Both the position numbers and the translations under genes were made by a program. This document shows, one piece after another, positions 319-12,090 of a stretch of 12,090 nucleotides of DNA (its first letter is position 1; each line of letters begins with the position of its first letter). Source of the DNA: a virus (Duplodnaviria > Heunggongvirae > Uroviricota > Caudoviricetes). Where the stretch lies: the IMG/VR virus record IMGVR_UViG_2778261395_000003. One strand, written 5' to 3'. The notes beneath the pieces were generated by a model. That model did not search any database. It saw only the letters and a list, made by a program, of their open reading frames with translations, and was not told the origin of the DNA.

Positions 319-477
319 GAATATTTTTTGGTAAGCGTCAAATATGCGCGTTCTGGCTGTGCGTAGCCGGAACCTGTGGGAGCACGATGCCGATAAGTGA
401 AAGGCATCGTGCTATGAAGGAGGATTCTATCGATGTGGTCAATGGAAGACGGTTACCAGAGATAGGGCTTATGCATA

Positions 478-504
478 AAAAAATAAGCCCGTGTAAGGGA
501 GATT
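478..504. repeat. attL core: 27-bp direct repeat AAAAAATAAGCCCGTGTAAGGGAGATT, identical to 10558-10584
   Basis: Exact 27-bp identity seen at both ends of the element. It lies immediately beyond the 3' end of the int gene, as expected for a P2-type attachment site. The length matches the 27-bp P2 core as I recall it. Confidence 0.75.
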
Positions 505-583
505 TAGGGTGTCACCAGTAGGGGCTTTCAACGGTACAATGCGGGTTTGAGCGGCATAAATTACCACTGAAAGCCCTTAAACG

Positions 584-1597
584 TTACTCTACTGTGGACA
601 CTGTGTGGACACTCTCGACCTCAGTACCACCTCTTAGCGGATTAAGAGAAATGGCGTCCTGAAGGTACTCTGGCGCAAAATGAGCGTAAACCATAGTTTG
701 CTCAATCCGCGTGTGACCTAGTATCCGTTGTAGCGTGATAATACTTCCTCCATTAATCATGAAATGAGTGGCAAAGCTGTGCCTTAGTGCATGTGTAGCT
801 TGCCCCATTGGCAAATCCGGTTTTATTGCTTTCATTGTTCGTCTGAAGCGAGGGTAATCAGCATCAGGGAATAAAAAACCTCGTTTGTTATCCGCGATCA
901 TTTTGGCAACAGCCTCTGAGATCGGGACGGTGCGTGGTTTGTTTGTTTTCGTTTTAACAAACGTGACGCGGTTATGGATGATATTTTCTGCTTTCAAACG
1001 AGCAGCTTCTCCCCAACGTGCTCCAGTACTCAGGCAAAGAATCGCAATCTTTTTGTTGTCGCCGTCAAGAGCAGCAAGCAGTAAGGCAATTTCTTCCTGC
1101 GTGAGATAGCCTGTGTCTGGTTTTTCCTCCTTAAGCCTTTTTGTCCCTCTGATAGGGTGCTCACCAAAGAATAACTCCGCTTCAATCAGGGCTGTAAACA
1201 TGCCGCTAATACATGTTAAATCACGATTGATACTCGAAGGTTTAATACCCTGACTTCTTCGGGTGGCGCAGTACTGGCTGATAAGCGATTTCGTAATTTG
1301 AAATGCGCATGGGTCATTCGTTATTTTTGTGAAGATTTCAATTTTTCCAAGATTAGATTTCCCATGCTCTTCGTGTTTACCCTTTAAATCCCACCAGATC
1401 TGTGTCAGCTCCGACAGACGTCGCTTGTCTGTTGGTTTTGATAGCCATTCTTTATTGTGGTGGTTGTACAACGTGTATTTCTCGAAAGCGACAGCTTCGC
1501 TTTTCTTATCAAACTTCCTACGGATGCGTTTTCCATTACGTCCAGTAGGGCGGATGTCCACTTCATATCGACCATCATCGAGTTTTTTGATTGCCAT
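584..1597 (-). CDS. int: Tyrosine integrase, P2 Int-like (337 aa)
   Basis: 337 aa, the size of P2 Int. C-terminal catalytic region contains R...HxLRHSFAT...LGH...Y (ATHALRHSFATHF, ILGHTRIEQTMVYAHF). GGAGGG Shine-Dalgarno upstream of the ATG. Sits adjacent to the att core and is co-oriented with the C repressor gene. Confidence 0.9.
   Translation of the reverse strand: MAIKKLDDGRYEVDIRPTGRNGKRIRRKFDKKSEAVAFEKYTLYNHHNKEWLSKPTDKRRLSELTQIWWDLKGKHEEHGKSNLGKIEIFTKITNDPCAFQITKSLISQYCATRRSQGIKPSSINRDLTCISGMFTALIEAELFFGEHPIRGTKRLKEEKPDTGYLTQEEIALLLAALDGDNKKIAILCLSTGARWGEAARLKAENIIHNRVTFVKTKTNKPRTVPISEAVAKMIADNKRGFLFPDADYPRFRRTMKAIKPDLPMGQATHALRHSFATHFMINGGSIITLQRILGHTRIEQTMVYAHFAPEYLQDAISLNPLRGGTEVESVHTVSTVE
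593..611. promoter_or_regulatory. Putative Int arm-type binding sites (P-prime arm): two direct TGTGGACA repeats 11 bp apart, inside the 3' end of int
   Basis: TGTGGACA at 593-600 and 604-611. A similar pair with the same spacing sits in the opposite arm at 10499-10517. The motif matches my recollection of the P2 Int arm-site consensus. Confidence 0.45.
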
Positions 1598-1712
1598 CAG
1601 AAAACCCTCCGAGTGGTGTGTTTTTTTGCGACTACTAATCGCTTTTTTCGTGGTGGCTGAAATTTAGCCACCAATAGTAGGCACTTGTGATGAATATATT
1701 CACGATGAATTG

Positions 1713-2012
1713 TTAACCAGTCTTTTGACCGGAGTGGGGCGACGTTGTTTCGTTTTGCCCAAAGTGTGCGAGAGCGGGCGCAATTTGCCCGGACTCAGGA
1801 GCGATCTGATTGGTCATGAACCATAAAGTGTATTTGGTGAATTGTGGGGTCTGCAGGATGTTCATCATGACATCTGTTGGAGGTGTTGAACGACCACTTT
1901 CATAGTAACTCAGCGTGCCATACGGAACCCCTGTTAAATCAGCAAGTTGTTGTCTGCTCAAATACTCTGATTTTCGCATTAAGACTATCTTCTCGCTTAT
2001 CGTGTTTGACAT
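1713..2012 (-). CDS. C: Immunity repressor, P2 C-like (99 aa)
   Basis: 99 aa, the size of P2 C. Divergent from cox across a 114-bp switch region carrying direct repeats. The N-terminal segment QQLADLTGVPYGTLSYYESG looks like a helix-turn-helix. Confidence 0.85.
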   Translation of the reverse strand: MSNTISEKIVLMRKSEYLSRQQLADLTGVPYGTLSYYESGRSTPPTDVMMNILQTPQFTKYTLWFMTNQIAPESGQIAPALAHFGQNETTSPHSGQKTG

Positions 2013-2046
2013 GGTGTTTAGATCTCAATAGTATTTAGTTTAGATG
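2006..2046 (+). promoter_or_regulatory. Early promoter Pe with flanking C-repressor operator half-sites (O1/O2)
   Basis: TTGACA (2006-2011) and TAGTAT (2029-2034) are separated by 17 bp. The direct repeat TTTAGAT at 2017-2023 and 2039-2045 (22 bp centre to centre) flanks the -10. A perfect TATAAT on the minus strand at 2084-2089 would give a convergent Pc with about 35 nt of transcript overlap. Confidence 0.6.
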
Positions 2047-2126
2047 TAGATTGTTTAGTGCTTGGATGTGGGCACTAAAAGGCATTATAAGACATTAAAC
2101 GCAATTCATGAGGGCTAGAGGACGAC

Positions 2127-2402
2127 ATGAGCAAGCAAGTAACACTCATGACTGATGCGATTCCTTATCAGGAGTTCGCAAAACTAATAGGAAAATCGAC
2201 AGGAGCGGTTCGTCGGATGATCGATAAAGGAAAGCTGCCTGTAATTGATATGACCGATCCACAATCAGCTTCAGGTCGTGCAGGTGAATATTGGGTATAC
2301 CTTCCGGCATGGAATAACGGACTAAAACTGGCTTATGAAAGCCGCCCTAAAGAGATTCGTGACGGCTGGTTGATGTGGTTAGGTCTCGGTGAACCACGTT
2401 AA
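2127..2402 (+). CDS. cox: Cox-like excisionase / Pc repressor (91 aa)
   Basis: 91 aa, the size of P2 Cox. First gene of the rightward early operon, with a GAGG ribosome-binding site. Confidence 0.8.
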   Translation: MSKQVTLMTDAIPYQEFAKLIGKSTGAVRRMIDKGKLPVIDMTDPQSASGRAGEYWVYLPAWNNGLKLAYESRPKEIRDGWLMWLGLGEPR

Positions 2403-2412
2403 GGAGAACCGT

Positions 2413-2583
2413 ATGAATGAGCCTCGTTGTATTGCTCAGTTACTGCGTAACGAAAGCCCCAGGGCGATTGACTTCACCATCACCCACGGTAAGGGGCGTA
2501 AGGGAATCATTATCCGCACCAAAAAACAGAGTCCGTTAAAAAAGGCTCTGACCTTTCTGAAAAGCCGGAGGGTATGGAAATGA
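2413..2583 (+). CDS. Small basic hypothetical protein in the P2 orf78 position (56 aa)
   Basis: ATG at 2413 is preceded by AAGGAG (2401-2406) at ideal spacing. The longer track ORF starting at 2389 has no ribosome-binding site. Lys/Arg-rich. Confidence 0.55.
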   Translation: MNEPRCIAQLLRNESPRAIDFTITHGKGRKGIIIRTKKQSPLKKALTFLKSRRVWK

Positions 2584-3080
2584 CAGTGATGACGCTCAAT
2601 CTCGTTGAAAAACAGCCAGCAGCTATGCGCCGGATAATTGGCAAGCATCTTGCCGTCCCTCGCTGGCAGGATACATGTGATTATTATAATCAGATGATGG
2701 AGCGCGAACGGCTAACGGTTTGCTTTCATGCACAGTTAAAACAGCGTCACGCAACGATGCGTTTTGAAGAAATGAACGACGTCGAACGTGAACGACTGGT
2801 TTGTGCAATTGATGAATTGCGTGGCGCATTCTCAAAACGCCGTCAGGTTGGTGCAAGTGAGTATGCATATATTAGTTTTTTAACAGTCAGTCAGCGTCGC
2901 ACTTTATTTATGCACGCACGACTGACTGAAAAAGAATTCAACCAGCCATACTGGCGAATTAATGAAGAATCATGTTACTGGCGTGATGCTTTGTTCCGTG
3001 CATTACGTGAATTATTCAGCATGTTTGAGTATGCACCGACAATTCTGACGTCGGTAAAACCAGAGCAATATCTGCATTAA
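2580..3080 (+). CDS. B: Replication protein B-like (166 aa from ATG 2580)
   Basis: Position between cox and A. 166 aa from the ATG at 2580, the size of P2 B. GGAGG at 2566-2570 favours 2580 over 2574. Confidence 0.75.
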   Translation: MTVMTLNLVEKQPAAMRRIIGKHLAVPRWQDTCDYYNQMMERERLTVCFHAQLKQRHATMRFEEMNDVERERLVCAIDELRGAFSKRRQVGASEYAYISFLTVSQRRTLFMHARLTEKEFNQPYWRINEESCYWRDALFRALRELFSMFEYAPTILTSVKPEQYLH

Positions 3081-3143
3081 ATAATTAACCAGAGTTTTTA
3101 ACGCACTTAATCGTGCGGGGCTTCTTTTTGCCTGGAGAAAGTC

Positions 3144-3368
3144 ATGCATACAGTTTCTGAAAATCAGTGCGGTATATACGCATTACTGCTGCAACAGGCC
3201 AGAACCGAAGCACAGGCCGACGCTGCGACGCGCTTTTCTTCTCATCTTGACGCCATGATTCGCCACATCACAAAGGCGGAGTTATCCCGCGTGGAGATAG
3301 TCGAGCTGCTCAGTCAGGAGTCGGAAAAATTTCACAATATCGGATTGTCTCGCGGGGAGGTGCTTTGA
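3144..3368 (+). CDS. Hypothetical early protein (74 aa), P2 orf80 position
   Basis: ORF with GGAGAAA ribosome-binding site. First of four tightly packed, overlapping small ORFs between B and A. Confidence 0.55.
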
Positions 3369-3670
3369 TGTCCTGTTCTCGTTCAGTTGTATTACTGAAT
3401 AACGCCTTAAAAATCGCCGTTATGAAAAATGGCGATTTATCTCTTATTCAACTTGGTCTTGATAAAGAAAAACGCGAAATAACTGAGTCTGTTATCGCGA
3501 TTTATCAGAACGAATTAAATCTCCTGTCTGATGTGGTCAATTTACTTGTTAAACGCGCTGTATTTCACAAGCAAATCTCCTCCGTGGATGAACTGACGAA
3601 GTTAACGACAGAAATTGCCAGCTATTGCGCTGATGAATTTAAGAAACTGAACGACAAAAGGAACTGGTAA
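3368..3670 (+). CDS. Hypothetical early protein (100 aa), P2 orf81 position
   Basis: ATG at 3368 overlaps the upstream TGA (TGATG), with GGGGAGG 9 nt upstream. The track's TTG start at 3365 is less likely. Confidence 0.55.
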   Translation: MSCSRSVVLLNNALKIAVMKNGDLSLIQLGLDKEKREITESVIAIYQNELNLLSDVVNLLVKRAVFHKQISSVDELTKLTTEIASYCADEFKKLNDKRNW

Positions 3671-3894
3671 TGCCGGACAACGTAGATTTCATTCAGGAAC
3701 AACAGGCTGAATTACTGGAGCGCCAGATTAACGCGGCAAGGGTAAAACATAGCGGTGTTTCTGCGCTGGTTTGCGAAGAGTGTGACGCGCTAATACCTGC
3801 TGCCCGTCGTGCGGCTTATCCGTCAGCCACGCGTTGTGTTTCCTGTCAGTCAGTCTTTGAAGCAAAAAACAAACATTACCGGAGAACGGCATGA
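3670..3894 (+). CDS. DksA/TraR-type C4 zinc-finger protein (74 aa), P2 orf82 position
   Basis: CEEC-x17-CVSC (C-x2-C-x17-C-x2-C) is the spacing of the zf-dksA/traR family. Start overlaps the upstream stop (TAATG). Confidence 0.6.
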   Translation: MPDNVDFIQEQQAELLERQINAARVKHSGVSALVCEECDALIPAARRAAYPSATRCVSCQSVFEAKNKHYRRTA

Positions 3895-4166
3895 GTATTC
3901 GTATTGAAATTGGCGAACGTTATGTCGTTACCAGTGACAGCTTTCAGTTTATTCTCCACGAGAAAAAGAGAGCGGAAAGCGGTAAAAACGCCGGTCAGGA
4001 ATGGCTGGCGGTGGTTGGTTATTACCCGAAATTAAGCCAGCTCGTTTCCGGCCTGATGCATCACGATATTCTGACCGGAAGCGCAAAGTCTTTTGCTGAT
4101 TTAAACGCGCAGGTTGAGCAACTCAGCAGGCGTTGTTCAGAGGCTTTGGGCTCATATGGCCGTTAA
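3891..4166 (+). CDS. Hypothetical early protein (91 aa), P2 orf83 position
   Basis: ATGA overlap with the upstream gene. Its end overlaps the A start, indicating translational coupling. Confidence 0.55.
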   Translation: MSIRIEIGERYVVTSDSFQFILHEKKRAESGKNAGQEWLAVVGYYPKLSQLVSGLMHHDILTGSAKSFADLNAQVEQLSRRCSEALGSYGR

Positions 4167-6423
4167 AGCCTCCGGGCGTTTTGTCCCTCCGTCAGCATTT
4201 GCCGCAGGCATCGGTAAGACGTTTACCGGTGCTTATGCATGGAACGCGCCACGCGAGGCTGTCGGGCGCGAAAGACCCCTTACACGTGACGAGATGCGTC
4301 AGGTGCAAGGTGTTTTATCCACGATTAACCGCCTGCCTTACTTTTTGCGCTCGCTGTTTACTTCACGCTATGACTACATCCGGCGCAATAAAAGCCCGGT
4401 GCACGGGTTTTATTTCCTCACATCCACTTTTCAGCGTCGTTTATGGCCGCGCATTGAGCGTGTGAATCAGCGCCATGAAATGAACACCGACGCGTCGTTG
4501 CTGTTTCTGGCAGAGCGTGACCACTATGCGCGCCTGCCGGGAATGAATGACAAGGAGCTGAAAAAGTTTGCTGCCCGTATCTCATCGCAGCTATTCATGA
4601 TGTATGAGGAACTCTGCGATGCCTGGGTGGATGCGCATGGCGAAAAAGAATCACTGTTTACGGATGAGGCGCAGGCGCATCTGTATGGTCATGTTGCTGG
4701 CGCTGCGCGTGCTTTCAATATTTCTCCACTTTTCTGGAAAAAATACCGTAAAGGACAGATGACCACGAGGCAGGCATATTCTGCCATTGCCCGTCTGTTT
4801 AACGATGAGTGGTGGATTAATCAGCTTAAAGGCCAGCGTATGCGCTGGCATGAGGCATTACTGATTGCTGTCGGGGAGGTGAATAAAGACCGTTCTCCTT
4901 ATGCCAGTAAACATGCCATTCGTGATGTACGTGCACGCCGCCAGGCAAATCTGGAGTTTCTTAAATCGTGTGATCTCGAAAACAAGGAAACCGGCGAACG
5001 CATTGACCTTATCAGTAAGGTGATGGGAAGCATTTCTAATCCTGAAATTCGCCGTATGGAACTGATGAACACCATCGCCGGTATTGAGCGTTACGCCGCC
5101 GCAGAGGGTGATGTGGGGATGTTTATCACGCTGACCACGCCGTCAAAGTATCACCCGACACGTCAGGTCAGAAAAGGCGAAAGTAAAACCGTCCAGCTAA
5201 ATCACGGCTGGAACGATGAGGCATTTAATCCAAAGGATGCGCAGCGTTATCTCTGCCGTATCTGGAGCCTGATACGCACGGCATTCAAGGATAATGATTT
5301 ACAGGCCTACGGTTTGCGTGTTGTTGAACCACACCACGACGGAACGCCGCACTGGCATATGATGCTTTTTTGTAATCCACGCCAGCGTAACCAGATTATT
5401 GAAATCATGCGTCGCTATGCGCTCAAAGAGGATGGCGACGAAAGAGGAGCCGCGCGAAACCGTTTTCAGGCAAAACATCTTAACCGGGGCGGTGCTGCGG
5501 GGTATATCGCAAAATACATCTCAAAAAACATCGATGGCTATGCACTGGATGGTCAGCTCGATAATGATACCGGCAGGCCGCTGAAAGATACTGCTGCGGC
5601 TGTTACCGCATGGGCGTCAACGTGGCGAATTCCGCAATTTAAAACGATTGGCCTGCCGACAATGGGGGCTTACCGTGAACTACGCAAATTGCCTCGCGGC
5701 GTCAGTATTGCTGATGAGTTTGACGAACGCGTCGAGGCTGCTCGCGCTGCCGCAGACAGTGGTGATTTTGCGTTGTATATCAGCGCGCAGGGTGGGGCAA
5801 ATGTCCCGCGCGATTGTCAGACTGTCAGGGTTGCCCGTAGCCCGTCGGATGACGTTAACGAGTACGAGGAAGAAGTCGAGAGAGTGGTCGGCATTTACGC
5901 GCCGCATCTCGGCGCGCGTCATATTCATATCACCAGAACGACGGACTGGCGCATTGTGCCGAAAGTTCCGGTCGTTGAGCCTTTGACTTTAAAAAGCGGC
6001 ATCGCCGCGCCTCGGAGTCCTGTCAATAACTGTGGAAAGGTCACCGGTTGTGATACTTCGTTACCGGCTCCCACACCTTCTGAGCACGCCGCAGCAGTGC
6101 TTAATCTGGTTGATGACGGTGTTATCGAATGGAATGACCCGGAGGTTGTGAGGGCGCTCAGGGGCGCATTAAAACACGGCCTGAGAACGCCAAATCGTCA
6201 GCAAAGAAACGGAAGCTCGTTAAAACCACATGAAATTGCACCATCGGCCAGACTGACCCGGTCGGAAAGAATGCAAATTACCCGTATCCGCGTTGACCTT
6301 GCTCAGAACGGTATCAGGCCGCAGCGATGGGAGCTTGAGGCGTTGGCGCGCGGGGCAACAGTAATTTATGACGGTGAGCGGTTTAGTTATGCTGTAAAAG
6401 ACGATTGGGTGATGTTTTCTTAA
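4156..6423 (+). CDS. A: Rolling-circle replication initiator, P2 gpA / phiX174 gpA superfamily
   Basis: HUH motif H-W-H-M-M-L at 5350-5367. Paired catalytic tyrosines in Y-I-A-K-Y-I-S-K (Y codons at 5503-5505 and 5515-5517), resembling the phiX174 A active site. Start placed at ATG 4156; the track's TTG at 4114 has no spacer after its Shine-Dalgarno-like sequence. Confidence 0.9.
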   Translation: MAVKASGRFVPPSAFAAGIGKTFTGAYAWNAPREAVGRERPLTRDEMRQVQGVLSTINRLPYFLRSLFTSRYDYIRRNKSPVHGFYFLTSTFQRRLWPRIERVNQRHEMNTDASLLFLAERDHYARLPGMNDKELKKFAARISSQLFMMYEELCDAWVDAHGEKESLFTDEAQAHLYGHVAGAARAFNISPLFWKKYRKGQMTTRQAYSAIARLFNDEWWINQLKGQRMRWHEALLIAVGEVNKDRSPYASKHAIRDVRARRQANLEFLKSCDLENKETGERIDLISKVMGSISNPEIRRMELMNTIAGIERYAAAEGDVGMFITLTTPSKYHPTRQVRKGESKTVQLNHGWNDEAFNPKDAQRYLCRIWSLIRTAFKDNDLQAYGLRVVEPHHDGTPHWHMMLFCNPRQRNQIIEIMRRYALKEDGDERGAARNRFQAKHLNRGGAAGYIAKYISKNIDGYALDGQLDNDTGRPLKDTAAAVTAWASTWRIPQFKTIGLPTMGAYRELRKLPRGVSIADEFDERVEAARAAADSGDFALYISAQGGANVPRDCQTVRVARSPSDDVNEYEEEVERVVGIYAPHLGARHIHITRTTDWRIVPKVPVVEPLTLKSGIAAPRSPVNNCGKVTGCDTSLPAPTPSEHAAAVLNLVDDGVIEWNDPEVVRALRGALKHGLRTPNRQQRNGSSLKPHEIAPSARLTRSERMQITRIRVDLAQNGIRPQRWELEALARGATVIYDGERFSYAVKDDWVMFS

Positions 6424-6506
6424 ACTGATGGCATCATGATACATTAACAAATCTGAAGCAATGCTTTAGTAGTCGTGCATTAATAACTTATAAGGAATTA
6501 TTATCG

Positions 6507-7829
6507 ATGAGTGCGTTAAGGGATGAAGTATCTATGAAGGTTGCGTTCTCTAATGGCATGATAAACAAATTATGCAAAAGTTTTTTTTATAGTCATGGTA
6601 AGGAGCAGCCTTGTATCCAAGTCGGTAAAGCATTAGAAGATTTTGTTTTTTGGCTTGCATATAATGATGAGGAGATTGCAAAATGTGCTAGTAGGTTATT
6701 AAAAGCATATGGCCCCCAATTAGGTATAAGTGACCTTCACAATGCGAAAAGATTATTGTTAGGTTTTTGTTCTGAAGCCTTCAATCGCATTGATGCTGAT
6801 TTTCTGTCGCTTAATCCTGATAAGATTTGTGTTGATGATATTATAACGCAAGTTCATAGAAAAAATCTTAGTGAGATGTTTAAGTATTATATACTTTCAC
6901 GAATAAAATCCTGTCCGTATATTTATAATCTTGGGTGTGCTGGCTTTGATGGGAAGCTTGAGCTTAGAGAAAATTTATTTTTATATGGCCCGGGGCTAGG
7001 GGTGGAATTAATTTCTGATATTAAAGACAAAACTGACATCAAGGTTCCTGTTGATTTTTATGATGATGAATATATGCGGCATAAACCAATTGGGAAATAT
7101 TTTCGACAGTCAAAATCCTGCTTGGTGGTGGCATATGCTTCATCAGAGGATAAAGCGGTGAAAATGTTTGATAGTTTGTTTGGAGCTTTATGTCTTGCGG
7201 TTGATAATCCTTTTGCGATTAATCGAGTTGCTGTTAATAATCTAGTTGAGTCTTTTGGTGTCGGGAAATATCATGAAAGTGAGTTTCGGGTGAATATTCC
7301 GTCTGTATATAATTTAAATATAACGGATTCAGCCTTGGCGATACTTACAAAAATACTTTCATCACCTGATAAAAGGATGTTGTCTGCTCTTTCCTTTATA
7401 GCGCACGGGTGGAGGGATGACAAACGTGAAAGGTTTTTGAATCAATTTATAGCATTGGATGCTATGTATGGAACCAATAATGGTAATAAAAATTCAATTA
7501 TTGGCGGTGTTTGCAGAGATGCGGCGAAAATTATTGATATTGATTCAAAAATAGGAATAATCTATGAGCTTAGGTGTAAGTTTGTTCATGGAGATATTTC
7601 ATCGTTATCTGATAATGATAGCTATCGAAAGTTTATTGATAGCTATGGCGTGGACCCTATTGTTTCTCTTTTTGAAATTCTTAAAGAATGCGTCCTTAAT
7701 TATAATGGTACTTACAAAACGCCAAAAGATGTTGGAAAGGCAGATAGGTCTATTTGCGTTCCTGCTGAGTTGCTTCCAGCGGTTGAGAGGATGATAGCGG
7801 AATACAGTGGAGTTAAAAAAACAAACTAA
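6507..7829 (+). CDS. AT-rich orphan cargo protein (440 aa); candidate defence or abortive-infection effector with an R-x4-H motif
   Basis: Long ORF with AAGGAA ribosome-binding site 9 nt upstream. GC is about 25-35 percent against about 55 percent in the adjacent A gene. Occupies the A-to-cos slot. No Walker A motif. C-terminal YELRCKFVHGD contains R-x4-H (R codon 7572-7574, H codon 7587-7589). Confidence 0.75.
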   Translation: MSALRDEVSMKVAFSNGMINKLCKSFFYSHGKEQPCIQVGKALEDFVFWLAYNDEEIAKCASRLLKAYGPQLGISDLHNAKRLLLGFCSEAFNRIDADFLSLNPDKICVDDIITQVHRKNLSEMFKYYILSRIKSCPYIYNLGCAGFDGKLELRENLFLYGPGLGVELISDIKDKTDIKVPVDFYDDEYMRHKPIGKYFRQSKSCLVVAYASSEDKAVKMFDSLFGALCLAVDNPFAINRVAVNNLVESFGVGKYHESEFRVNIPSVYNLNITDSALAILTKILSSPDKRMLSALSFIAHGWRDDKRERFLNQFIALDAMYGTNNGNKNSIIGGVCRDAAKIIDIDSKIGIIYELRCKFVHGDISSLSDNDSYRKFIDSYGVDPIVSLFEILKECVLNYNGTYKTPKDVGKADRSICVPAELLPAVERMIAEYSGVKKTN

Positions 7830-7970
7830 AGATGTTCTTTTTAGCCTCGCCTGCATTAGGTGCATAAATTTGCATTCATTTTCAAATATATCTTTTGACA
7901 GCGAGCACCAGAACAGGCGCTTGCCGGGGGGATGATGCACCTGCATTAAAACCGCCCCATGAAGCGGGCG

Positions 7971-7989
7971 GGCGAGGCGGGGAAAGCAC
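7971..7989. other. cos site: 19-nt P2/P4-type cohesive-end sequence GGCGAGGCGGGGAAAGCAC
   Basis: Exact match to the P2/P4 cohesive-end sequence as I recall it. It sits in a GC-rich non-coding island (about 7895-8040) between two AT-rich blocks, at the position expected between the A side and Q. Confidence 0.65.
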
Positions 7990-8122
7990 TGCGCGCAATG
8001 ATGTCAGTTTGAGGGCATCAGGCATGGGGACACTACACAGTTTCATTTTTGTTATTAATTGTTTATCATATAAGTGTTTGTTTTTTGAACGGCATGTCGT
8101 GTGCTATATGGAGTGAATAGAA

Positions 8123-8392
8123 GTGACTAAATTTGACAAAAAAAAAGCAATTTCTATTTTAACAGAAAAAAAAGCCTTGCTCCCATGTCATCGGTGTGGA
8201 AATTCAAAGTTCATCATTTTGGATGGCATATCATCACTTCCATTAATGGAAAATATGGAAATGATTGGTAGTATTGTTGTTGGCGGAATGAATGCTCCTG
8301 TATTACATGTGGCATGTGAGAATTGTGGTGCAGTTACTTCACATTTGCTTGGGGCACTTGGTTTAATGCCGGAGATTAAATCAAATGACTAA
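8123..8392 (+). CDS. Small zinc-ribbon protein (89 aa), first gene of a two-gene cargo module
   Basis: GTG start with GGAG 8 nt upstream. Two C-x2-C pairs (CHRCG and CENCG) about 40 residues apart. AT-rich. Overlaps the next gene by 8 nt. Confidence 0.6.
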   Translation: MTKFDKKKAISILTEKKALLPCHRCGNSKFIILDGISSLPLMENMEMIGSIVVGGMNAPVLHVACENCGAVTSHLLGALGLMPEIKSND

Positions 8393-8855
8393 GGGTGTTT
8401 TTTTCTCTGATGAAGGTAGTGGTAAAAAAAGTGCTGTCTTGCATGGGGCGCAGGTTACAATAAACCCTGATTCGCAATTTACAAAAAAGATAATTAGGCA
8501 GACTGAGGTTGATGTTATTGTGATAAGTGATGATAAACTTCATATAATTTTGACGAATTGCTTATCTAAAATTGCATCATTAAACCGCTGGTCAACACCT
8601 TTGGGTATTTTAATTACCTTGGCGGTAACTATGTTAACCACAAATTTTAAGAATTTTATTCTTCAGGATTCTGTGTGGGAGGCTGTTTTCTGGATGCTTA
8701 TTTTTTTTAATATTATCTGGTTGGTGAAAAACATTCCATATAGACACTTATTTTTAACTGTTTGTCATTCTATAGGGGTTCGTAAAGATAAAAAAAGAAT
8801 TAGTGATGTATACCACATTATAGATATAATTAAACAAGGTGATACACGCTTTTGA
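8385..8855 (+). CDS. Small membrane protein (156 aa) with two predicted transmembrane helices, second gene of the cargo module
   Basis: Two hydrophobic stretches (WSTPLGILITLAVTMLTT and AVFWMLIFFNIIWLV) after a roughly 65-aa soluble N-terminal region. ATG overlaps the upstream gene's end. AT-rich. Confidence 0.65.
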   Translation: MTKGVFFSDEGSGKKSAVLHGAQVTINPDSQFTKKIIRQTEVDVIVISDDKLHIILTNCLSKIASLNRWSTPLGILITLAVTMLTTNFKNFILQDSVWEAVFWMLIFFNIIWLVKNIPYRHLFLTVCHSIGVRKDKKRISDVYHIIDIIKQGDTRF

Positions 8856-8888
8856 TTTAATATCAATATTTGATTGAGTATATAATAA

Positions 8889-8911
8889 AGCCGCCTGAGT
8901 TTATGGCGGCT
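8889..8911 (-). terminator. Hairpin downstream of the Q remnant, possible intrinsic terminator
   Basis: 7-bp GC-rich stem AGCCGCC/GGCGGCT with a 9-nt loop. On the minus strand it is followed by UUUAUUAUAU, immediately 3' of the Q stop. Confidence 0.4.
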
Positions 8912-8931
8912 AATATAGGGTGTGTGCTAAG

Positions 8932-9936
8932 TCATAATGTGTATTTGTTGAATCTAATTATTTCTTCGCCAACCCATTCATTAAGGGCAATAAAGCGAGA
9001 TTGAATAGGAGTAAGCTCATTGCGGACAAAGACCTTTGCCACTTTCTCAATATCACCCAGCGACCCGACGTTCTCCGGCTTGCCGCCCATCAACTGAAAG
9101 GGGATGCGGTGCGCGTCCAGCAGGTCAGCGGCGCTGGCTTTTTTGATATTAAAAAAATCGTCCTTCGTTGCCACTTCACTGAGCGGGATAATTTTAATGC
9201 CGTCGGCTTTCCCTTGCGGGGCATAGAGAAACAAATTTTTAAAGTTGTTGCGGCCTTTCGACTTCACCATGTTTTCGCGAAGCATTTCGATATCGTTGCG
9301 ATCCTGCACGGCATCGGTGACATACATGATGTATCCGGCATGAGCGCCGTTTTCGTAATACTTGCGGCGGAACAGCGTGGCCGACTCATTCAGCCAGGCA
9401 GAGTTAAGGGCGCTGAGATATTCCGGCAGGCCGTACAGCTCCTGATTGATATCCGGCTCCAGCAGGTGAAACACGGAGCCGGGCGCGAAGGCTGTCGGCT
9501 CGTTGAAGGACGGCACCCACCAGTAAACATCCTCCTCCACGCCACGGCGGGTATATTTTGCCGGTGAGGTTTCCAGTCTGATGACCTTACCGGTGGTGCT
9601 GTAACGCTTTTCCAGAAACGCATTACCGAACACCAGAAAATCCAGCACAAAGCGGCTGAAATCCTGCTGGGAAAGCCACGGATGCGGGATAAATGTCGAG
9701 GCCAGAATATTGCGTTTGACGTAAATCGGCGAGCTGTGATGCACGGCAGCACGCAGGCTTTTCGCCAGACCGGTAAAGCGAAACCGGTCACGCAGAAGAA
9801 AGCGCCAAAAGTACCGGAAGCGCGCGAAGGTGAATACATGGCCGGTGAGGCTGACAACGTTTTTGCCCTGACCACGGTATATGCCACGAAAGCGCAGGCC
9901 ATGCGCGCCGCTCAGGCGAAGTGGGACAAACTGCAA
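8932..9936 (-). pseudogene. Q: Portal protein gpQ-like remnant, N-terminally truncated and fused to antisense D sequence
   Basis: The C-terminal roughly 250 aa look like genuine protein. The first roughly 80 codons are R/F-rich low-complexity sequence lying antisense to the D-fragment frame, so the true 5' part of Q is probably missing. Confidence 0.7.
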
Positions 9937-10155
9937 CGGGGCGTCGCGGAGTTCTCCATCAGCCTGGCTACCGGTCGGGCTGATATTTACACGGAAACAC
10001 CGGTTAAAGTGTCAGGCTTTAAGCGCGTCATAGACGAGCAGGACTGGACAATCACTAAGGTGACACATTTTCTGAATAATAGCGGCTTCACGACGTCCTT
10101 AGAGCTTGAGGTCAGGCTTTCTGATGTGGAGTACGAAACAGAAGATTATGAGTGA
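9682..10155 (+). pseudogene. D: 3' fragment of tail gene D (gpD C-terminal region); yegZ-like remnant
   Basis: The C-terminal sequence (VSGFKRVIDEQDWTITKVTHFLNNSGFTTSLELEV) matches the conserved end of P2 gpD-family proteins as I recall it. The ORF is far too short for a full D (about 387 aa) and sits directly upstream of ogr. The first in-frame ATG within the clearly D-like part is at 9838. Confidence 0.7.
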
Positions 10156-10557: not shown

Positions 10558-10584
10558 AAAAAATAAGCCCGTGTAAGGGAGATT
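10558..10584. repeat. attR core: 27-bp direct repeat identical to 478-504, overlapping the 3' end of cyaR
   Basis: Exact identity with 478-504. Coincides with the terminator and U-tract of the sRNA gene. Confidence 0.75.
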
Positions 10585-10644
10585 ACACAGGCTAAGGAGG
10601 TGGTTCCTGGTACAGCTAGCATTTTATGGGTTATGTTTTTCAGC
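10558..10644 (-). ncRNA. cyaR: CyaR (RyeE) Hfq-dependent small RNA, 87 nt
   Basis: The minus-strand sequence GCUGAAAAACAUAACCCAUAAAAUGCUAGCUGUACCAGGAACCACCUCCUUAGCCUGUGUAAUCUCCCUUACACGGGCUUAUUUUUU matches CyaR as I recall it. It contains the CCUCCUUAG anti-Shine-Dalgarno-like seed and a terminal hairpin (CCUGUGUAA / UUACACGGG) with a U-tract. Located between yegQ and ogrK as in E. coli. Confidence 0.85.
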
Positions 10645-10694
10645 GAAACGGATGATAACCTTAATAAATGCAGCTGTATGTGATCGGTTTCTAA
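10645..10694 (-). promoter_or_regulatory. cyaR promoter with candidate class II CRP site
   Basis: TGTGA-N6-TCTAA (10679-10694) is centred about 42 bp upstream of the inferred transcription start at 10644. A TATCAT-like -10 lies at 10652-10657. CyaR is a known CRP-cAMP-activated sRNA. Confidence 0.4.
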
Positions 10695-10728: not shown

Positions 10729-12090
10729 TCACTTACCGTGTGGGTTACGCGTGGTTTCCCCGGAGAAATTACGCATCAGCAGAGCGTAATTGAGCTCAAG
10801 ATCCTGCGGGACCGGGAGCCACACAGTATAACCATCGCCTGGTGCGACCGGCATCGCTTCACCTTTGGCGTTTTCCATGTGCTCAAGGGTAAAGTTAATG
10901 TTGCCTTGCGGCGTCATCAGCTCAAGGCTGTCGCCAACGGAGAATTTATTTTTCACCGCTACCGCCGCGAGGTCCCCCTTGCGCTCACCGGTAAACTCAC
11001 CAACAAACTGCTGGCGGTCAGAAACTGAATAACCGTATTCGTAGTTCTGATAATCGTCGTGAGTATGACGACGCAGGAAACCTTCGGTATAGCCACGATG
11101 CGCCAGACCTTCCAGAGTTTCCAGCAGGCTGGTATCGAACGGTTTGCCCGCAGCGGCGTCATCGATAGCTTTACGGTAAACCTGTGCGGTGCGTGCGCAA
11201 TAGTAGAAAGATTTAGTACGGCCTTCGATTTTCAGCGAATGCACGCCCATTTTGGTCAGGCGTTCTACATGGGCGATGGCGCGCAGATCTTTCGAGTTCA
11301 TGATGTAAGTGCCGTGCTCATCTTCAAACGCGGTCATATACTCGCCCGGACGCTGGGCTTCTTCGATCATAAACACTTTGTCGGTTGGCGCGCCGATACC
11401 CAGCGTCGGCTCAACATTTTGCACCGGAATCGGCTCGTACTTGTGTACGATGTTGCCAACGTCATCTTCTTTCCCTTCCTGGACGTTGTACTCCCAGCGG
11501 CAGGCGTTGGTGCAGGTACCCTGGTTCGGATCGCGCTTGTTGATATAGCCAGAGAGCAGGCAGCGACCGGAGTAGGCCATGCACAGTGCGCCGTGAACGA
11601 AGATCTCGATCTCCATATCCGGCACCTGATTGCGGATCTCTTCAATCTCTTCCAGCGACAGCTCGCGAGAGAGGATCACGCGGGTCAGGCCCATTTGCTG
11701 CCAGAATTTCACCGTCGCCCAGTTTACGGCGTTAGCCTGCACCGAGAGGTGGATCGGCATTTCAGGGAAGTGCTCACGCACCAGCATAATCAGCCCTGGA
11801 TCGGACATAATCAGCGCATCCGGCCCCATTTCCACCACCGGTTTCAGGTCACGGATAAAGGTTTTCAGCTTGGCGTTGTGCGGTGCAATGTTGACCACGA
11901 CATAAAACTTTTTCCCCAGCGCGTGGGCTTCATTGATGCCGAGCTGAAGATTTTCGTGGTTGAATTCGTTGTTGCGCACACGCAGGGAGTAACGCGGCTG
12001 GCCCGCATAAACAGCATCTGCGCCATAAGCGAAAGCGTAACGCATATTTTTCAGCGTTCCCGCCGGGGAAAGGAGTTCCGGTTTAAACAT
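10729..12090 (-). CDS. yegQ: Peptidase U32 family protein YegQ/RlhA (453 aa, complete)
   Basis: Contains the U32 signature E-x-F-x2-G-[SA]-[LIVM]-C-x4-G-x-C-x-[LIVM]-S (EIFVHGALCMAYSGRCLLS). The ATG is the last codon of the window on the minus strand. Host-like GC content. Confidence 0.9.
   Translation of the reverse strand: MFKPELLSPAGTLKNMRYAFAYGADAVYAGQPRYSLRVRNNEFNHENLQLGINEAHALGKKFYVVVNIAPHNAKLKTFIRDLKPVVEMGPDALIMSDPGLIMLVREHFPEMPIHLSVQANAVNWATVKFWQQMGLTRVILSRELSLEEIEEIRNQVPDMEIEIFVHGALCMAYSGRCLLSGYINKRDPNQGTCTNACRWEYNVQEGKEDDVGNIVHKYEPIPVQNVEPTLGIGAPTDKVFMIEEAQRPGEYMTAFEDEHGTYIMNSKDLRAIAHVERLTKMGVHSLKIEGRTKSFYYCARTAQVYRKAIDDAAAGKPFDTSLLETLEGLAHRGYTEGFLRRHTHDDYQNYEYGYSVSDRQQFVGEFTGERKGDLAAVAVKNKFSVGDSLELMTPQGNINFTLEHMENAKGEAMPVAPGDGYTVWLPVPQDLELNYALLMRNFSGETTRNPHGK

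Follow-up and report, generated by a model that had tools for sequence, protein, structure and literature searches.

A P2-like prophage remnant at the cyaR site of E. coli GF4

The window analysed here is a stretch of 12,090 nucleotides from the IMG/VR record IMGVR_UViG_2778261395_000003, and it matches the chromosome of E. coli GF4 (NZ_CP172217.1) at 100% identity. Pfam and PHROG assignments revealed a P2 gene order, in which int, C, cox, B and A are followed by cargo, cos, a second block of cargo, a truncated portal gene fused to the tail gene D, and ogr (Table 1). B and small early ORFs lie between Cox and gpA. The early region is full length (int, C, cox, B, A and ogr), and the two 27-bp att cores match each other exactly. 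As the preliminary description of this DNA had stated, the element has no terminase: no terminase gene was found in the window by Pfam, PHROG or RefSeq annotation. Measured against an intact Peduovirus, the window lacks P, O, N, M, L and the tail genes, and what is left of Q, truncated near codon 55, is joined to the 3' end of D. Unlike P2, the prophage has thus lost the terminase and all morphogenesis genes. On sequence grounds, we identify the element as a 10,080-bp P2-like prophage remnant at the yegR/cyaR/yegQ locus of E. coli GF4, not a satellite. The host sRNA gene CyaR/RyeE was matched by Rfam at 10561-10646 on the minus strand (100.7 bits); the prophage inserts into the end of this gene, which it restores.

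Table 1. Features of the prophage remnant and its surroundings, in window coordinates
Feature	Position	Strand	Evidence and remarks
attL core, 27 bp, AAAAAATAAGCCCGTGTAAGGGAGATT	478-504		repeated exactly, in direct orientation, at 10558-10584; located between yegR and int, in other strains too
P2-type tyrosine integrase, 337 aa	584-1597	-	Pfam Int_N and Phage_integrase; 'site-specific integrase' in homologous loci L002, L003, L008 and L009
C-like HTH repressor (immunity switch 1713-2402)	1713-2012	-	Pfam HTH_3
Cox (immunity switch 1713-2402)	2127-2402	+	Pfam Phage_Cox, E = 5.5e-48
gpA replication endonuclease, apparently intact	4156-6423	+	Pfam Phage_GPA, E = 3e-121; RefSeq 'replication endonuclease'
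Left (A-side) cargo, 440-aa protein	6507-7829 (module ~6375-7934)	+	RefSeq HEPN-domain-containing; phrog_23812 over full length
Three phased TGCA(T) repeats	7852, 7861, 7871 (span 7852-7875)		candidate terminase-recognition element of cos
Conserved cos core, 62 bp	7935-7996	+	only stretch common to P4 and all P2-like loci examined
19-nt cohesive-end sequence	7971-7989	+	identical to cosL in the reference records for P2 and P4; staggered terminase cuts predicted on either side
Right (Q-side) cargo module	7997-8885	+	ORFs 8123-8392 and 8385-8855; GC 0.28-0.34
tQ-like terminator hairpin, 3' of portal gene	8890-8910	-	gccgcc...ggcggc, then T-run; counterpart of annotated P2 tQ
Q' portal pseudogene, without N-terminal ~55 codons	8932-9779	-	phrog_68 positions 56-338 of 344; RefSeq 'incomplete; missing N-terminus'
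Q'/D' deletion junction, microhomology of at most 5 bp (AAAGC)	9775-9779		homology to Q extends to 9779, that to D begins at 9775
D' fragment, C-terminal ~125 codons (C-terminal third) of tail gene D	9780-10155	+	phrog_52 and phrog_12925 tail protein
ogr late-gene activator, 72 aa	10237-10455	+	RefSeq ogrK; phrog_603
attR core	10558-10584		overlaps 3' end of host sRNA gene cyaR (10561-10646, minus strand)
Host peptidase-U32 gene yegQ/trhP	10729-12090	-	next after ogr/attR

The cos core is shared with P2, P4 and 186

The 19-mer common to P2 and P4, GGCGAGGCGGGGAAAGCAC, occurs in the window as a single exact copy on the plus strand, for which the chance expectation, allowing up to three mismatches, is about 0.01. 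Its location between A and Q is that of a P2-type cos, with gpA ending at 6423 and the Q' stop at 8932. The cos junctions of P2, P4 and 186 were rebuilt from their records and then aligned to the window. In this alignment, the core consists of ATGCACCTGCATTAAAACCGCCCCATGAAGCGGGCG, followed by GGCGAGGCGGGGAAAGCAC and then by TGCGCGC, and it is identical to P2 (NC_001895), the satellite P4 (NC_001609) and 186 at 57/62, 56/62 and 55/62 positions, respectively. Scanning IMG/VR for the exact 19-mer yielded 120 loci, and when loci were anchored at the cut site, high conservation was observed from -36 to +26. Every position conserved in at least 90% of 124 comparison loci is unchanged in the window's core, whose few differences are common polymorphisms, with no rare variant at a conserved position. 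In a BLAST search against 50,697 phage records, P2-family phages matched across 7935-7996 only, while some Klebsiella and Yersinia P2-like phages matched 7838-7996 at 73-75%; one record of a P2 isolate (OU784746) is 100% identical to the window over 7936-7996. As cited in a published report (PMC9594776), the conserved P2/P4 cos site measures about 55 bp, and transduction is raised more than 1000-fold by longer flanks.

The preliminary description had drawn a GC-rich cos island at 7895-8040 between two AT-rich cargo blocks and had considered the whole island to be preserved intact. The composition was borne out, with a GC content of 0.61 over 7895-8040, 0.356 in the left cargo ORF (6507-7829), 0.338 in the right cargo ORFs (8123-8855) and 0.32 and 0.28 in the spacers around the island (61% versus 28-36%), and the comparison that it had proposed with P2, 186 and P4 found the 19-mer and the conserved flanks free of mismatches. 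Preservation holds for the core at 7935-7996 but not for the remainder of the island, since 7895-7934 and 7997-8040 are specific to the adjacent cargo modules and not universally conserved. The canonical right flank of P2 and 186 (TGGCGGTGGTGCTGATT...CAGCGTCTCAGCGCGTCGTGA) is absent from the window. P4 and most P4-like elements also have no such flank, though they are packaged, indicating that it is not a defining requirement of a P2-type cos.

In the prophage remnant of FT130 (L003), four mismatches to the window were found across the core, and two of them (CCGCCCC to CCGTCTC) adjoin the cut; these may reflect cos decay in a remnant of greater age, or else natural variation. In the KE50 prophage (L008), the canonical right flank contains, 26-75 bp right of the 19-mer, a tandem expansion of CAGCGTCT (CAGCGTCTCAGCGTCTCAGCGTCT...), which is absent from P2 and the other loci.

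Phased TGCA repeats lie at a fixed distance from the cut

A further conserved element lies in AT-rich DNA to the left of the core, outside the island at 7895-8040, and had been missed by the preliminary description. It comprises a TGCA-N6-TGCA motif at 7861-7875, positioned at -110 from the cut, and a third TGCA at 7852. Of 102 unique sequences left of cos, 77 contain the same motif, 74 of them at -111 +/- 1 relative to the cut, as against 0 of 3,357 background windows; in P4, the TGCA cluster likewise lies about 110 bp left of cos. In P2-like and P4-like flanks (L010-L129, about -121 to -97), the spacing is fixed whatever the neighbouring cargo, and this constancy despite variable intervening sequence suggests a protein-binding architecture. 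The repeats are probably part of terminase recognition, a role deduced from conservation alone, and may constitute a putative binding element of the terminase small subunit. They extend the conserved cos region and would have to be included in a minimal cos for P2/P4 cosmids. In addition, a weaker GC-rich palindrome-like element was observed near -65 to -48 in the cut-anchored IMG/VR loci, of which the window holds a degenerate copy at about 7906-7925. Taking core and repeats together, the sequence of 7852-7996 reads as the cos packaging site of a P2-like (Peduovirus) prophage, at which cleavage is predicted.

Cargo occupies both sides of cos

The interval between gpA and gpQ adjoining cos is this phage family's published hotspot for anti-phage cargo (Rousset 2022, PMC9122126; de Sousa et al. 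2026, PMC13586616), and defective P2 elements that keep hotspot genes have been described (PMC13586616). As in those reports, variable AT-rich accessory systems lie between gpA and gpQ beside a conserved core. Among IMG/VR loci (n = 68), at least 907 bp always separated the end of gpA from cos, with a median of 2,705 bp. The distance from cos to the Q stop was 164-184 bp in 85 of 93 P2-like loci and 946-3,209 bp in the other 8. Thus, the A side always carries cargo, and the Q side does so in 8/93 P2-like loci (~9%). In all P4-like loci (n = 20), psu lay 167-216 bp to the left of cos, with cargo exclusively on the int side. Variable sequence starts right after TGCGCGC both in P4-like elements and in those P2-like loci that have Q-side cargo, so that the junction of the Q-side slot is the same as that of the P4 hotspot. 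Comparison of Q-side P2-like cargo with P4-like cargo by tblastx gave one weak match only, none involving the window. The preliminary description had held that AT-rich foreign DNA abuts an undisrupted cos on both sides and that both flanks are permissive for insertion; the former agrees with the window and the latter with these counts, although it restates the published gpA-gpQ hotspot (PMC9122126). Whereas the two published studies treat gpA-gpQ as one hotspot, these loci suggest that the two sides of cos are independently assorting cargo slots, with Q-side occupancy as the minority state.

On the A side, the accessory cargo of P2 is orf91, tin and old, and the window has a HEPN-labelled protein instead of old/tin. 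The left module together with the core (6430-7996) was present at an identity of at least 99.3% in 39 other genomes among the matches listed, several of them ST131. The left cargo is absent in ECC-1470, H6 and FT130, where homology to the window stops at 6370-6374. No match to this protein was detected in Pfam, PADLOC or NCBIfam. On the Q side, the right module replaces the ~125-bp canonical flank that in P2 and 186 extends from TGCGCGC to tQ, and it places there a two-gene module of ~0.9 kb. ORF 8123-8392 encodes 89 aa with weak zinc-ribbon-like matches (Lar, L37e), and it is overlapped by ORF 8385-8855, which encodes 156 aa assigned to phrog_32870. Set against the published defence hotspots, the cargo of the window has no PADLOC match: PADLOC and NCBIfam gave no useful match for the three cargo proteins, and the sole pointer to an anti-phage role is the RefSeq HEPN label, which makes the 440-aa protein a candidate single-gene defence system. 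The right module (7997-8900) was found in 8 of 5,426 complete E. coli genomes, always on the Q side of cos, and in none of the phage records. At least six of the other seven genomes carry a different left cargo, mostly a DUF7380 protein.

Cargo was most likely exchanged at the cos core before the deletion

Comparison with related prophages showed that the content between gpA and gpQ is replaced in KE50, ECC-1470, H6 and FT130, with breakpoints at 6370-6374, 7935/6, 7996/7 and about 9008. Homology between GF4 and the KE50 prophage covers 323-7996 (98.2%) and ends exactly at the end of the core, and that between GF4 and the ECC-1470 prophage covers 7936-9779 (99.1%) and begins exactly at the start of the core. 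Mismatch maps placed the transitions more finely: GF4 is KE50-like to at least 7960, ECC-1470-like (0-1 mismatches) from 7961 to about 9321, and KE50-like again at 9266-9678. These maps indicate that the right module was patched into a HEPN-type, KE50-like backbone by two crossovers, one at 7961-7996 and the other at about 9266-9321, inside Q. The former interval is 36 bp long and contains the 19-nt cohesive end. The crossover fits both homologous recombination in the core and joining of cos ends, without distinguishing them. Rousset et al. 2022 (PMC9122126) speculated that cos ends promote exchange in the hotspot, and a 36-bp breakpoint that includes the cohesive end bears on this unproven idea.

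Both cargo-cos junctions of GF4 are found in prophages that are apparently intact. KE50 has the left cargo-cos junction together with portal, terminase ATPase, scaffold and capsid genes, and ECC-1470 has the right cargo-cos junction together with the same four genes and the terminase endonuclease subunit. Since the same junctions exist in these terminase-bearing prophages, the cargo would have been gained before the deletion. The most likely order, as read from these comparisons, is that cargo swaps took place first in functional phages and that the deletion came later.

A single, probably recent deletion removed the late genes

The junction between Q' and D' points to one deletion as the event that removed the terminase, head and tail genes. 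Among 5,426 complete E. coli genomes, the junction at 9775-9779 was spanned by one, namely GF4 itself; this count measures the rarity of the deletion, and its age is deduced from that rarity. Intact homologues share ~98% identity with Q', intact D genes match D' at 100% over 156 bp, and both fragments are free of indels and premature stops in their original frames. Since these dead genes are nearly unchanged, no change is to be expected in the 62-bp core either: the time elapsed has been too short for cos to degenerate, and its intactness carries no information on selection in the remnant. The contrast between a conserved core and changing flanks reflects selection acting on the phage lineage and not on the terminase-less remnant. 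In the H6 and FT130 remnants, which occupy the same locus, the deletion junctions differ from that of GF4.

The deletion produced two chimeric ORFs. In the ORF at 8932-9936 on the minus strand (334 aa), the first ~53 codons are antisense to D and the remainder is Q', and the ORF at 9682-10155 on the plus strand (157 aa) covers D' and is a hypothetical protein in the RefSeq annotation. Both are probably by-products of the fusion and of no significance.

Probable passive retention of cos and alternative explanations

We consider it highly probable that the feature is the cos of a P2-like prophage in the gpA-gpQ hotspot, with cleavage predicted, that cargo swaps were followed by the deletion, and that cos is now a passive leftover. 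In a functional phage, the gpM/gpP terminase would recognise the region and introduce staggered nicks around 7971-7989, giving 19-nt cohesive ends. Cargo modules would be exchanged between related phages by recombination, with one crossover in the cos core or at the cohesive ends and the second in a conserved gene, A or Q. This would be how the HEPN-type backbone of GF4 acquired its right-hand module (7961 to about 9320). A later single illegitimate deletion, from Q codon ~55 to D, would then have eliminated the terminase, capsid, lysis and tail genes, leaving a remnant of 10,080 bp between att sites with cos as a passive survivor. The feature is thus an already known kind of site in a known hotspot, and its value lies mainly in correct annotation, as a textbook P2 cos in a recently decayed prophage.

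The preliminary description had instead proposed that cos function, and with it packaging by a helper, has been under selection in an element without terminase. Spelled out, this alternative is a helper-dependent, satellite-like element whose cos is kept by selection because it is spread, cargo included, through packaging by a P2-like helper. Between its exact att cores, the 10,080-bp unit does keep int, cox, C, B, A, ogr and a flawless cos, and P2 machinery packages cos-carrying, terminase-less molecules of 5-12 kb into P2/P4 capsids (PMC2231350, PMC9942202). The deletion junction is nevertheless seen in just 1/5,426 genomes, which gives no sign of spread, and Q' and D', without indels or premature stops, leave no elapsed time in which selection on cos could be seen. 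In addition, the cargo junctions pre-exist in terminase-bearing prophages. The window has no genes for capsid-size control or helper exploitation, with no match by tblastn to psu, alpha or P4 int, and the GF4 chromosome contains no second cos core and no second Q/D match at megablast sensitivity, so that no such resident helper is evident. Other strains also keep int-A-cargo-cos-Q' after different deletions, which speaks for the proposal, but similar remnants were listed in order of how much of this window they cover, so that the list is biased; the frequency of int-A-cos-Q' remnants was for this reason rejected as evidence of selection. Overall, we regard selection by helper packaging as improbable. 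What stands of the preliminary interpretation is a genuine P2-type cos with both flanks used, and what falls is selection on cos after the loss of the terminase, which the recent single deletion, the near-intact Q' and D' and the cargo junctions of terminase-bearing prophages leave unsupported. Passive retention is the simpler reading, though the remnant also keeps what a helper-mobilisable element needs. By analogy with the packaging of such DNA by P2 machinery, an incoming P2-like helper could in principle package the remnant. There is a small chance that it is a newly formed mini-P2 acting as a satellite, which would be excised, replicated and packaged with a P2-like helper and would spread its cargo. 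It would then be packaged either as a ~30 kb trimer in capsids of normal size or as a monomer in capsids shrunk by Sid, and it would illustrate a route by which satellites arise from their own helpers. By the same analogy, helper-dependent mobilisation is mechanistically conceivable, if unlikely to operate; as the process that shaped the sequence, it is far less likely still.

A P4-like satellite would naturally have cos and no terminase. The unit is P4-sized (~10 kb), it shares the cos core with P4, and its variable cargo begins directly after TGCGCGC, as P4 cargo does after (T/C)GCGCGC. The window carries, however, the P2 genes int, C, cox, gpA, portal, D and ogr, and none of its ORFs matched a satellite-type family in Pfam or PHROG. 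Tblastn with P4 psu, int and alpha primase as the three queries gave no match in the window. Furthermore, 1.5 kb of cargo lies left of cos, as opposed to psu at 167-216 bp from cos in 20/20 P4-like loci, including P4 itself, where psu is 168 bp left of cos and cargo is never found there. The P4-like satellite is refuted by this gene content, and we assign it a vanishingly small probability. The core might also have been kept for some other cis function in the host or remnant, such as a terminator insulating the two cargo blocks from each other. A 6-bp all-GC hairpin followed by a T-run does lie on the minus strand at 7971-7952, within the conserved core, and it is the only terminator-like site found in 7700-8950; yet shuffled sequence gives a mean of 1.1 such sites. 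Stem changes in 186 and many other loci are not compensatory, single-strand folding of 7835-8045 is no better than that of shuffles (z = -0.30), and conservation reaches well past the hairpin, across the 19-mer and TGCGCGC. A promoter scan likewise returned sites no more frequent than in shuffles. A terminator or other cis function of this kind is therefore very improbable.

The cyaR/yegQ site presumably also holds a decayed P2-like prophage in E. coli K-12 (ogrK and the gpD pseudogene yegZ), which keeps D'-ogr-attR; we take the K-12 remnant to be without cos, the early genes and the hotspot, all of which GF4 retains.
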